A stretch of DNA of 64,000 nucleotides. It comes from Parcubacteria group bacterium (lineage in GTDB: Bacteria; Patescibacteriota; Minisyncoccia; UBA10092). Position 1 is the first letter of the stretch. Each line of letters starts with the position of its first letter. A program made the position numbers and the translations under genes. The stretch lies in contig JACPLW010000002.1 of NCBI GenBank assembly GCA_016186325.1, positions 1,485-65,484 on the forward strand, in the 5' to 3' direction. Positions 2,405-57,223 of the stretch are shown piece by piece. Under the pieces are notes generated by a model. That model saw only the letters and a list, made by a program, of their open reading frames with translations. It ran no database searches and was not told where the DNA came from.

Positions 2405-2470
2405 TTATTTCATTAAATCATCAATTGAAACACCTAGCCCTTTAGCAATTTTCGCCATAGTTTCAATTTG
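2405..2470 (-). pseudogene. C-terminal remnant of an XRE-family HTH gene fused to the tRNA-Val 3' end
   Basis: Translates QIETMAKIAKGLGVSIDDLMK*, a typical XRE C-terminus; no N-terminal part. Confidence 0.6.
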
Positions 2471-2545
2471 TGGGCGCATCTGGATTTGAACCAGAGACCT
2501 TCTCAATGTCAATGAGACGCTCTAACCGGGCTGAGCTATGCGCCC
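2471..2545 (-). tRNA. tRNA-Val(GAC), copy A
   Basis: Anticodon arm TCTCA-TTGACAT-TGAGA, T-loop TTCAAAT; body sequence differs from copy B. Confidence 0.92.
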
Positions 2546-2565
2546 TTATTAAATTATCAACTTAG

Positions 2566-2637
2566 TGGGCGCACTAGGATTCGAACCTAGAACCGGTCGT
2601 GTATAAGACGACTGCTCTGCCATTGAGCTATACGCCC
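2566..2637 (-). tRNA. tRNA-Ile(TAT)
   Basis: Cloverleaf with anticodon arm GTCGT-CTTATAC-ACGAC. Confidence 0.85.
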
Positions 2638-39369: not shown

Positions 39370-39446
39370 AATAATTTAGAATAAACGTAAAATAACATAA
39401 AACGGGTTGAAATTCAACTAAAATTTTGCTATAATATTTAAAATAT

Positions 39447-39517
39447 CGGGGTATAGTGTAATGGCAGCACGAGTCTTTTGGGAAGATTTAGTCTCGGTTC
39501 GAATCCGAGTACCCCGA
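39447..39517 (+). tRNA. tRNA-Pro(TGG)
   Basis: CGGGGTA acceptor, AGTCT-TTTGGGA-AGATT. Confidence 0.92.
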
Positions 39518-39592
39518 CAGAGAAAAACTAAATTTTGGGCCTATAGTCTAGTGGTAGAACACGTCATTCGTCCCGATTTATTAAATTTTTAA

Positions 39593-39847
39593 ATGTTTTA
39601 TTGCTATATATTAAAATCGAGAATAAATGGTGCTTATTATGTAGGAAGTTGCCAAAGCATTGCTATAAGGCTTGACCAACATAATAAATTTTTAGTTCCT
39701 TCCACAAAAAGATATGTTCCATGGGATTTAGTCTATCAAGAAAAATTTGTTACATTAAAAGAAGCTAGAAACAAGGAACTAAAAATAAAGTCCTGGAAGA
39801 AAAGAAGTTCTATAGAAAAATTAGTTAAAACATTTCAAAATTTTTAA
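39593..39847 (+). CDS. small GIY-YIG nuclease
   Basis: YCYIL...YYVG...RLDQHN...EARNKELKIK. Confidence 0.9.
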   Translation: MFYCYILKSRINGAYYVGSCQSIAIRLDQHNKFLVPSTKRYVPWDLVYQEKFVTLKEARNKELKIKSWKKRSSIEKLVKTFQNF

Positions 39848-39884
39848 TAAATCGAGGATCCGCGATAACCTTGGTGGGCCCAGA

Positions 39885-39958
39885 GGGCCCATAGTTAAGT
39901 GGTATAACGGCGCATTCGCATTGCGTAAGCGGGAGTTCGATTCTCCCTGGGTCCACCA
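39885..39958 (+). tRNA. tRNA-Ala(CGC), nested, CCA encoded
   Basis: GGGCCCA/TGGGTCC acceptor, GCGCA-TTCGCAT-TGCGT. Confidence 0.9.
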
Positions 39959-40456
39959 AGGTTATCGGGACATTGACGAAACGGCGGTCCGATTCCGCCT
40001 AGGTCCACCAAACAGGAAATTGCAAGCAAGAGGGAGTCGCCTTGCCCGTCTCGCTCCCGCGCTCCGCGCGGAAAAATGGTGGCGCAATTCTTGAACAAGC
40101 CCTAAGAGGCTATTTTGTTTTCTAAGAAAACAAAATTCAAATAATGACAAGGTTTTGGGCATAATTATTGAGGTTTTAGGCCATATTTTTGATTATGCCC
40201 AAAACCTTGACAAACTGACGTAAATTTGCTATAATAAAGATATAAAAATTGATGTAGTTTTAGATCAATTTTTGCTCTTGTTCTTTGCAAATTTGCGAGC
40301 GAATCTCCTTGAGATTTTGAAATGAGCAGCGCATTGAGTGGCTGAAACACCACTTGTTGCGCTAACAGATATTTAATGCACTGCTTATAACGAGTTAGAC
40401 CTCGTCGTGGTCGTGTAGGACACACGATTCAAAATCGCAAACCAAAGGAGGAGCCG

Positions 40457-41133
40457 ATGGAAGTAGGAGTGCTGTTCTCAAGCGACGGCATTCTGGCGCT
40501 AAACAAACCGCCCGGGATGTGCAGTCAGGGACCCAAGACTTCGGATATCCCGGAGTTGTGGGAACTGCTACGAACACACCACCCTGGCGGTCATGTCGCT
40601 CATCGGATCGATCAGTACACATCTGGTATCAATCTAGCTGGTGCTTCAAAACGGCAGATCAGTTATCTGATGCGTAACTGGCACCAGATCACGCGAAAGA
40701 ACTACCTGTCTGTCTCATCAACAACCCGACGTGGAGCGAGAAGGTTGTGGACACGCCCCTCAAGGGTAAGTCCGCAATCACTGCGTTCACGGTGCTTGAG
40801 CGTTCTGGATCGTTGGCGTTGATTCAATGCCAGCTAGTCCAAAACGGGCGGACTCATCAAATCCGGCGACACCTGAAGTCGATCGGTGCACCGATCGTCG
40901 GAGACCGAAAGTACAAGGGTCCGACAACCAGGGTGCGGTCTGGTCAACTGCTTCATGCGTGGCGCATGGAGGTCAGACTGCCGGACGATTCTGGTAAGCC
41001 CGGCCCTTGGATTACCATTCAGGCGCCGATCCCCAACGATTTCAAGCAGATCAACTTCGATTGGAGTCGCTGGGATGCCAACGCCAACACAACGCTGGAG
41101 ATCTGGGCAGTTCCCTCCGGTTGGCGACACTAA
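40457..41133 (+). pseudogene. frameshifted RluA-family pseudouridine synthase
   Basis: LNKPPG and HRIDQYTSG in one frame; GRTHQIRRHL and PIVGDRKY in another; shift near 40705-40716. Confidence 0.8.
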
Positions 41134-44953: not shown

Positions 44954-45054
44954 TAATTTAGCAAAGTGGGCCAAAGCCAAATGTTTGGCTTTGGCGGGAA
45001 TTTTAGTGAGCTTTAGCGAGCGTTAAAAAATTCCCCGGAAGAGCGACTCGTTTA

Positions 45055-45209
45055 TTCCCGATTTGTCTAAAAATTCAAGTTCTTGTAGAATTTTTAGCAA
45101 CAAATCGCAATCCCGCTTAAAGTGGGCGCATAGCTCAGCTGGTTAGAGCGTCGCATTTACACTGCGAAGGCCCTCCGTTCGAATCGGAGTGCGCCCACTT
45201 TGTGCGGGA
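45055..45209 (+). mobile_element. 155-bp anticodon insertion (TTCCCGA...GCGGGA) carrying a tRNA-Val(TAC), no ORF
   Basis: Same position and similar termini as the Ala insert. Confidence 0.72.
45124..45197 (+). tRNA. tRNA-Val(TAC), nested
   Basis: GGGCGCA/TGCGCCC acceptor, TCGCA-TTTACAC-TGCGA. Confidence 0.9.
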
Positions 45210-45339
45210 CACCGAGTAGGTCCGAGGTTCAATCCCTCGAACGCCCATCAAAATTTGATATTTGACACAACAAAAATAAGAAGTTATAATAGAAAAATTA
45301 GATCCGATAGCTCTTTTCAAATGTAAATGAGGGAACTAA

Positions 45340-56932: not shown

Positions 56933-57223
56933 GACTCTTATTTTTCCCGCGAGAAATTGTAAAACAGGCGGGATTTGCCCAAAAAGAGTATAAATAAGCC
57001 AAAATTAAGGGTAATAAGCCTGAAGCTAAACAGCAAAATTCACCACTTAATGGTAGCAAAGCTCTTTTTGGCCAGTCAAGGTAGTTATCCCCATGTAGTT
57101 TATGCTATCATATGCTGGACATGGATCCCGTTAGAAATTTATGTTGTTAATCAAACACAAATTAAACGGACAACTTACATTATTTTTTGTAATTAAGAAA
57201 ATTGAAAATAGATTTCTAACGGG

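Follow-up and report, generated by a model that had tools for sequence, protein, structure and literature searches.

The locus raises the question of why a tRNA-Ala(CGC) gene in a small bacterial genome is interrupted by a 400-bp insert which itself holds a nuclease gene and a second, complete tRNA-Ala(CGC). The preliminary description of the window, by which we mean the whole analysed stretch of 64,000 nucleotides, had offered an autonomous element and, possibly, a novel spliced or processed intron yielding two tRNAs. Judged by sequence comparison, the mobile-element half of this reading appears to hold and the intron half does not. The host genome (G000) measures 751 kb, is 99.46% complete and encodes proteins whose nearest relatives are from Patescibacteria.

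The insert (39571..39970) interrupts the resident gene between G35 and C36. The 5' half, positions 1-35, lies at 39537..39570 (+) and the 3' half, from C36 and with the CCA included, at 39971..40010 (+). The basic observations reported earlier are all confirmed on the sequence: the first bases of the insert are TCCCGA and the last TCGGGA, there is no target duplication, and deleting the insert restores a tRNA-Ala(CGC) with CCA, as the rejoined halves are called by ARAGORN. At the corresponding site, a genome of the same family (G010) has an uninterrupted gene with 87% identity to the rejoined one, and the empty allele is seen in same-family relatives (L014, L015, L024, L029), in which tRNA-Pro(TGG) is directly followed by an uninterrupted Ala(CGC). 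In our genome the tRNA-Pro(TGG) found by the tRNA calls is at 39447..39518 (+). Upstream of the pair is a sigma-70-like promoter, TTGAAA-17-TATAAT (39407..39435, +; 11/12 consensus match), which probably transcribes Pro, split Ala, nuclease gene and inner tRNA as one unit. Downstream of the split gene lies an inverted repeat of 21 bp (40145-40212), inside which a 21-nt stretch is directly repeated; the inverted repeat extends over the -35 box of a perfect promoter (40207-40235). It is followed by an RluA-type pseudouridine synthase gene split over two frames (40457-41133, +), with parts of PF00849 in both ORFs, the result of a frameshift or a sequence error.

The structure is not an assembly artefact. 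Contigs of run X4, from another sample of what may be the source study, bridge both junctions with no differences and at an even depth of about 37.5, and the left junction is also bridged by a contig in run X5, from another study; no single contig of these two runs spans the entire structure. Joints skipping exactly the 400 bases are present in X4 and X9. We discarded them as evidence of excision, as with 85% likeness they are probably the uninterrupted genes of other organisms.

The insert folds into two adjoining hairpins. Hairpin 1 (39571..39858, +; from inverted repeats and folding) has the ends TCCCGAT / ATCG(A)GGA, and hairpin 2 (39859..39970, +) has the ends TCC(G)CGAT / ATCGGGA and a 16-bp stem. 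Between them lies a conserved junction, ATCGAGGA directly followed by TCCGCGAT (39851..39866, +), which is the signature of the element family described below. The fold of the whole structure has a z of -5.94, with 0/100 shuffles as good. The inverted repeat first noticed around the nuclease ORF is borne out and turns out to be longer than the 12 bp given for it, pairing 39574-39590 with 39838-39854 and 39583-39600 with 39826-39843. The ORF sits in the loop of hairpin 1 and extends into the stem with its start codon and its last codons. Pairing of 39863-39883 with 39947-39967 over 21 nt, also part of the preliminary description, is found to be 95% complementary. The inner end of the hairpin 2 stem pairs with the ACC of the tRNA and is continuous with its acceptor stem, so the tRNA occupies the position of a loop. 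A 9-nt spacer (39876..39884, +; folding and alignment) repeats the first bases of the inner tRNA and can pair with its 3' acceptor strand. This spacer is peculiar to the present copy among those aligned, with 79 nt between the arms against 70-73.

Both passengers of the insert are intact in sequence. The inner tRNA-Ala(CGC) at 39885..39958 (+) is intact with an encoded CCA (ARAGORN; Rfam 66.8 bits) and, as had been claimed, divergent: it lies on the same strand as the outer gene and is 75% identical to it. The single-domain GIY-YIG gene (39593..39847, +; PF01541, E 2.4e-13) has an intact frame of 84 aa and 27% GC. Residues Y5, Y16, G18, R26, H30 and E62 of its product are invariant in 25 homologues. 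An NCBIfam search with the protein gave a sub-threshold group I endonuclease match, and a PDB sequence search gave weak UPF0213 and SLX1 matches only. GIY-YIG is the sole ORF seen in the 400-bp insert, where no integrase was found, and PF01541 its sole Pfam match, with no HUH tyrosine transposase. Five further small GIY-YIG genes occur in this genome (C8:68588, C12:41658, C8:13846, C2:95081 and C2:40639), three of them bracketed by other inverted repeats and two adjoining tRNA-Cys or tmRNA.

The 16-base junction motif is found in 57 of 401 genomes of the class, while its reversed control gave 2 matches. We examined 107 junctions in 104 loci, comprising the matches listed (81 others were left out) and three added loci. 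Among these, 92 junctions could be delimited as two hairpins, most of them 24-29 or 42-44 nt long; the 15 that the script could not delimit are left out of the counts, and a few of the 92 have a misplaced end, for example L090. Most of the copies among the matches listed are cargo-less and only 42-100 bp long. Within the same set, the target duplication is 0-1 base in 91 of 92 elements, position -1 is G in 71 of 91 and position +1 is C in 67 of 92, giving the consensus TTG^CAA. The Ala anticodon loops TTG^CAA and TCG^CAT match this family target. The end triplets covary, TCC with GGA and TTC with GAA (13 T-A, 72 C-G and 7 other pairs among the matches listed), and although the sequence of the hairpin 2 arms around Ala cargo varies, pairing is complete in 8 of 13 copies. 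These shared features make the insert one member of a family of double-hairpin elements. A GIY-YIG match is present in 13 of the 92 delimited copies among the matches listed, and its frame is often broken in copies other than ours. Most copies do not have the nuclease, so its link to the element comes from co-occurrence. Phages were considered as a vector and rejected, as the junction motif has three matches in viral contigs, none with the hairpins of the element or a tRNA. No description of the nested arrangement was found in the literature searched, which covered little of the subscription literature, and this kind of element is apparently common in related bacteria without having been described there.

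Copies in protein genes are informative on whether the family is removed from RNA. Among the matches listed, the emptied site lies in an open frame, defined as one that stays open over 50 codons to either side, in 18 copies, of which 15 are in frame and free of stops. The length is divisible by 3 in 16 of these 18, and elsewhere lengths are evenly distributed modulo 3 (26/22/26). The three exceptions are two chance frames over tRNA genes and one out-of-frame, nuclease-bearing copy (L080). The 15 in-frame cases come from related genomes; five of them share a single LeuRS site, and the frame of L110 is a chance one. Of the 12 in-frame sites tested, Pfam assigns 11 to real genes, among them LeuRS, DnaG, Dus, trigger factor, H+-PPase and UvrA. 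At the LeuRS site, which follows EELW/EEIW, different variants of 51-66 bp stand in frame in five genomes (L040, L041, L130, L132, L145). An element spliced from RNA needs no retention of frame, so these copies speak against removal from RNA, and as far as comparison tells the family is not removed in this way.

The tRNA genes among the targets show a second regularity, namely that the cargo matches the gene that was hit. We searched the 401 genomes for the left junction with a 13-base Ala(CGC) pattern, for which a control pattern gave 8 matches. Seven of the 18 matches are split Ala(CGC) genes, and 7/7, including the present copy, carry an intact Ala(CGC), while the outer gene is broken in four of them; the remaining 11 lie outside tRNA genes and were dropped as chance matches. 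For metagenomes, 7 of 8 matches are split Ala(TGC) genes, each with an inner Ala(TGC), and the eighth, outside tRNA genes, was likewise dropped as chance. All 14 Ala genes found split at the Ala junction hold an intact tRNA with the same anticodon. A tRNA is carried by 18 of the 92 elements among the matches listed, and in 17 of these 18 what is left in the flanks, compared by eye, comes from the same isoacceptor: Ala, Glu(CTC), Cys or Thr(CGT). ARAGORN recognises the rejoined outer gene in only 6 of the 18 tRNA-carrying copies in that set. Other copies show second insertions, lost halves and broken GIY-YIG frames, and two copies are reduced to an ordinary tRNA with a scar, having lost the right arm and the 3' half of the outer gene. 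Cargo-less copies in tRNA sequence lie, among the matches listed, in remnants with an intact copy close by. Among the loci examined we find no split gene without an intact copy inside or beside it. The outer halves of the present copy show no clear decay. C12.A23 and the TCCGATT T-loop had been candidate signs of such decay, and were rejected because intact relatives have a 12.23 mismatch and the same loop.

The inner tRNA is the sole uninterrupted Ala(CGC) that we found in the genome. Genes of other families match it at 93-94% identity, and it differs from the outer gene by compensatory changes in the acceptor, anticodon and T stems. These changes, together with the low identity, suggest that it was not copied from the interrupted gene. 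Two genomes of the same genus (G001 and G002) have a third type of allele, 73-77% identical to both inner and outer genes. The tRNA tree is poorly supported (1 of 28 branches), so the argument for a foreign origin is drawn from these identities. The tree of the nucleases tends to place proteins of different host families together when they share a cargo; support is mixed, being 91/74 for a Glu trio, 99/97 and 91/91 for pairs with Ala(TGC), and only 83/65 for the Ala(CGC) group.

Direct comparison of sequences shows that the family exists, that its ends are conserved and its G^C junctions blunt, that empty alleles occur, that cargo and target match, and that outer halves and nuclease genes decay in other copies. 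We consider it probable that a selfish element acting at the DNA level inserted bluntly at G35^C36 and inactivated the resident tRNA gene, and that the cargo tRNA rescues the function. The double-hairpin element would have inserted between G35 and C36 of the host tRNA-Ala(CGC), while a complete Ala(CGC) of foreign origin would have arrived in hairpin 2 and taken over, read from the host tRNA promoter. The 84-aa GIY-YIG protein may recognise the hairpin ends, probably as single-stranded or cruciform DNA by analogy with the nuclease Ssn discussed below, and may make the cuts that mobilise the element. This role is suggested by the location of the gene inside hairpin 1, the invariant catalytic residues and the Ssn precedent. 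Cargo-less copies might be mobilised in trans. The inner tRNA could be freed from the long stem by RNase III, RNase P and trimming, given that an RNase III gene and the RNase P RNA are both found in the genome. The cycle may end with the loss of the nuclease and the outer halves, which would leave a swapped tRNA allele. With its frame and outer halves intact, the present copy looks young. The multi-copy family, conserved ends, blunt junctions, empty alleles and intact nuclease frame thus bear out the proposed element, whereas its autonomy is something we infer.

Group I introns reportedly occur at 35/36 in tRNA-Asn and tRNA-Asp of Patescibacteria, and one may ask whether the insert is instead a new type of intron, cut from the precursor RNA with ligation of the outer halves, so that both tRNAs are made. 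Once rejoined, the outer gene does give a well-formed tRNA that includes CCA; in the folded precursor the outer cloverleaf is preserved, with both hairpins stacking on its anticodon arm; and site 35/36 is in the anticodon loop, where group I introns sit according to the part of 10.1101/2020.01.27.920355 used here. We nevertheless find this very unlikely. The insert has no Rfam Intron_gpI core, the sole weak match of the genome being on another contig, and there are 0 group II domain V/VI matches in the genome; nor were RtcB and EndA, the tRNA-intron endonuclease, found in this nearly complete genome. The in-frame copies in protein genes also argue against splicing, as do the outer halves, broken by ARAGORN in 12 of 18 copies among the matches listed and in four of the seven Ala(CGC) cases, and the constant presence of an intact copy inside or beside the split genes examined. 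SsnA is moreover inactive on RNA in the portion of PMC11893778 consulted. A group I intron with shifted boundaries, which would yield a tRNA-Val(GAC) or Val(CAC), deserves almost no credence. The earlier statement that the junctions do not fit the group I rule stands for the Ala join, with G at -1 and A at omega, but not for shifted joins. The rules given in the part seen of 10.1101/2020.01.27.920355 are U at -1 with G at omega, and also C at -1 with G at omega; joins after U32 or U33 fit the former and a join after C34 the latter, but all produce Val anticodons. No catalytic core was found in the insert, and the uninterrupted orthologue reads Ala(CGC). The tRNA body has the G3.U70 pair, which is the identity rule of tRNA-Ala. 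Furthermore, the family ends TCCCGA/TCGGGA are fixed in every context, and intact Val(GAC) and Val(CAC) genes exist elsewhere in the genome.

A more serious alternative concerns only the origin of the cargo, and we regard it as improbable for the present copy. Here the element would have inserted cargo-less or with the nuclease only, and the replacement tRNA would have been copied locally into hairpin 2 by template switching or gene conversion, during or after insertion. Local copying fits equally well in L135, L120, L069 and L075, in which inner and outer tRNAs are nearly identical. The nuclease group closest to ours includes a tRNA-less copy after fusA (L002), and leftover duplications of the acceptor end beside the cargo, at 39876-39884 here and on the 3' side in L001 and L108, suggest a turnover of cargo. 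At the present locus, however, 25% of sites distinguish the inner from the outer gene, three stems show compensatory changes, the genome yielded no further Ala(CGC) that could have been the donor, and the nucleases of different host families group by cargo, although the support of 83/65 for the Ala(CGC) group is modest.

If we return to arrival of the tRNA with the element, a bolder version can be formulated, which we put forward tentatively and would not yet bet on. The family might be a new, minimal type of bacterial transposon in which a lone 84-aa GIY-YIG protein moves a double hairpin by blunt insertion without duplication, and in which the tRNA in the loop serves both as the rescue and as an address label, directing the element through homology to the gene of the same anticodon. 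The cargo matches the target even for the C34 isoacceptors Ala(CGC), Glu(CTC) and Thr(CGT), and selection alone explains such a match less well; by the wobble rule, C34 isoacceptors should be dispensable. If true, this would be a cargo-programmed element that repeatedly swaps tRNA alleles between lineages, and if the cargo steers the target, it would be a new class of element.

The closest known counterpart is Ssn with its NTS/SRM repeats (Chenal et al. 2025, PMC11893778). As far as the consulted part of that paper describes it, this is likewise a small single-domain GIY-YIG nuclease tied to a multi-copy hairpin repeat; its catalytic spacing is Y6/Y17/E64, against Y5/Y16/E62 here, and its repeats share a similar TCCCG/CGGGA core. 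The same part relates that the target of Ssn is single-stranded DNA next to its own hairpin repeat, that RNA is left uncut, and that the authors liken NTS-ssnA-NTS to an insertion sequence. Differences are also clear. The nuclease gene described there is flanked by short hairpins, whereas here it is the loop of one long hairpin, and the fixed double-hairpin form is unlike what is described of Ssn/NTS; the word tRNA occurs 0 times in the main text of PMC11893778. The SRM search pattern is found in 0 of the 92 elements among the matches listed and nowhere in 39437-40110. Our protein falls outside the clade of six NTS-adjacent nucleases (support 100/99), which are stand-ins for the Ssn clade (cd10448), and does not have their C-terminal extension; a sister relation to this clade is not rejected (p-AU 0.2). 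We therefore do not file the element as Ssn. By analogy, it may work like the Ssn/NTS pair of nuclease and hairpin, while it lies outside Ssn on both SRM and clade.

Other systems resemble the element in single traits. Integrative elements targeted to tRNA genes, such as phages and genomic islands, often insert at the anticodon loop and leave a working tRNA; they depend on an integrase and restore the gene across the junction by means of a partial duplicate. The present insert has neither an integrase nor a duplicated att core, and the tRNA nested in it is whole and separate. The double-hairpin elements (DHEs) of fungal mitochondria are likewise short, two-hairpin, potentially mobile and patchy, and occur in intergenic DNA and rRNA genes (PMC10085805, in part); they are organellar, no nuclease or tRNA cargo is described for them in that part, and the likeness is one of shape. 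Rickettsia palindromic elements are also found in both intergenic and protein-coding sequence, in-frame in a tRNA synthetase, and are repeats of 100-150 bp with no cargo described in the part of PMC1779305 used. SegB, a free-standing GIY-YIG homing endonuclease of phage T4, likewise targets tRNA gene DNA and spreads with the surrounding tRNA genes. Our element differs from it, as SegB, according to the excerpt of PMC2330249 consulted, cuts double-stranded DNA at a 27-bp site in the T-arm, spreads through gene conversion between phages, and concerns one locus without hairpin ends or nesting. Hairpin ends, non-autonomous copies and the absence of target duplication are shared with REP/RAYT and IS200/IS605, as they are presented in part of PMC11893778, but these use an HUH tyrosine transposase, while here only a GIY-YIG gene is seen.

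Our results point to a widespread, apparently undescribed mobile element in Patescibacteria, down to 42 bp in size, that adds peptide stretches to essential proteins and supplants tRNA genes by nesting new ones within them. Such an element would account for the duplicated and broken tRNA fragments in the streamlined genomes of these bacteria, and would provide a function for the small orphan GIY-YIG genes that are numerous in them. Mobilisation of hairpin repeats by Ssn-like nucleases would become directly testable, because in the present copy the enzyme frame is intact and both ends are there, while its blunt target is defined and its empty allele known.

Some further observations concern the tRNA genes of the genome. 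A tRNA with the anticodon TAT, rare in bacteria, is called Ile, and two different Val(GAC) genes are preceded by the same leader of about 30 bases; the coordinates of the three are listed together as 2565-2637 (-), 932-1004 and 2470-2545 (-). No Ala(TGC) or Ile(GAT) gene was found in the whole genome. Contig C7 ends inside 23S rRNA, so the missing genes are probably in an unassembled rRNA operon. This end of C7 adjoins a weak group I intron match.

Hairpin elements with other ends were also noticed. The family CCCGTTAGA...TCTAACGGG has 28 copies in this genome, many of 95-100 bp and with unrelated AT-rich loops, at sites which include 57127-57223 of the window, C7:22982 and C9:1483; one copy encloses a GIY-YIG gene with an internal stop and another a tRNA-Ser(CGA). 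A single-hairpin family, CCCCGT...ACGGGG, also nests Ala(CGC) in Ala(CGC), with the cut after U33 (L013:1442-1640, L147, L035:1470-1700). In G012 such an element seems to lie inside a TCGGGA-ended one, resulting in two successive outer 3' halves. Finally, the window contains one more case of tRNA nesting, at a 155-bp insert of related double-hairpin type (45055-45209, +; TTCCCGAT...GCGGGA). This insert splits an old tRNA-Val(TAC) in the anticodon loop, of which the outer remains lie at about 45040-45247 with a truncated 5' half, and it carries an intact Val(TAC) at 45124-45198.
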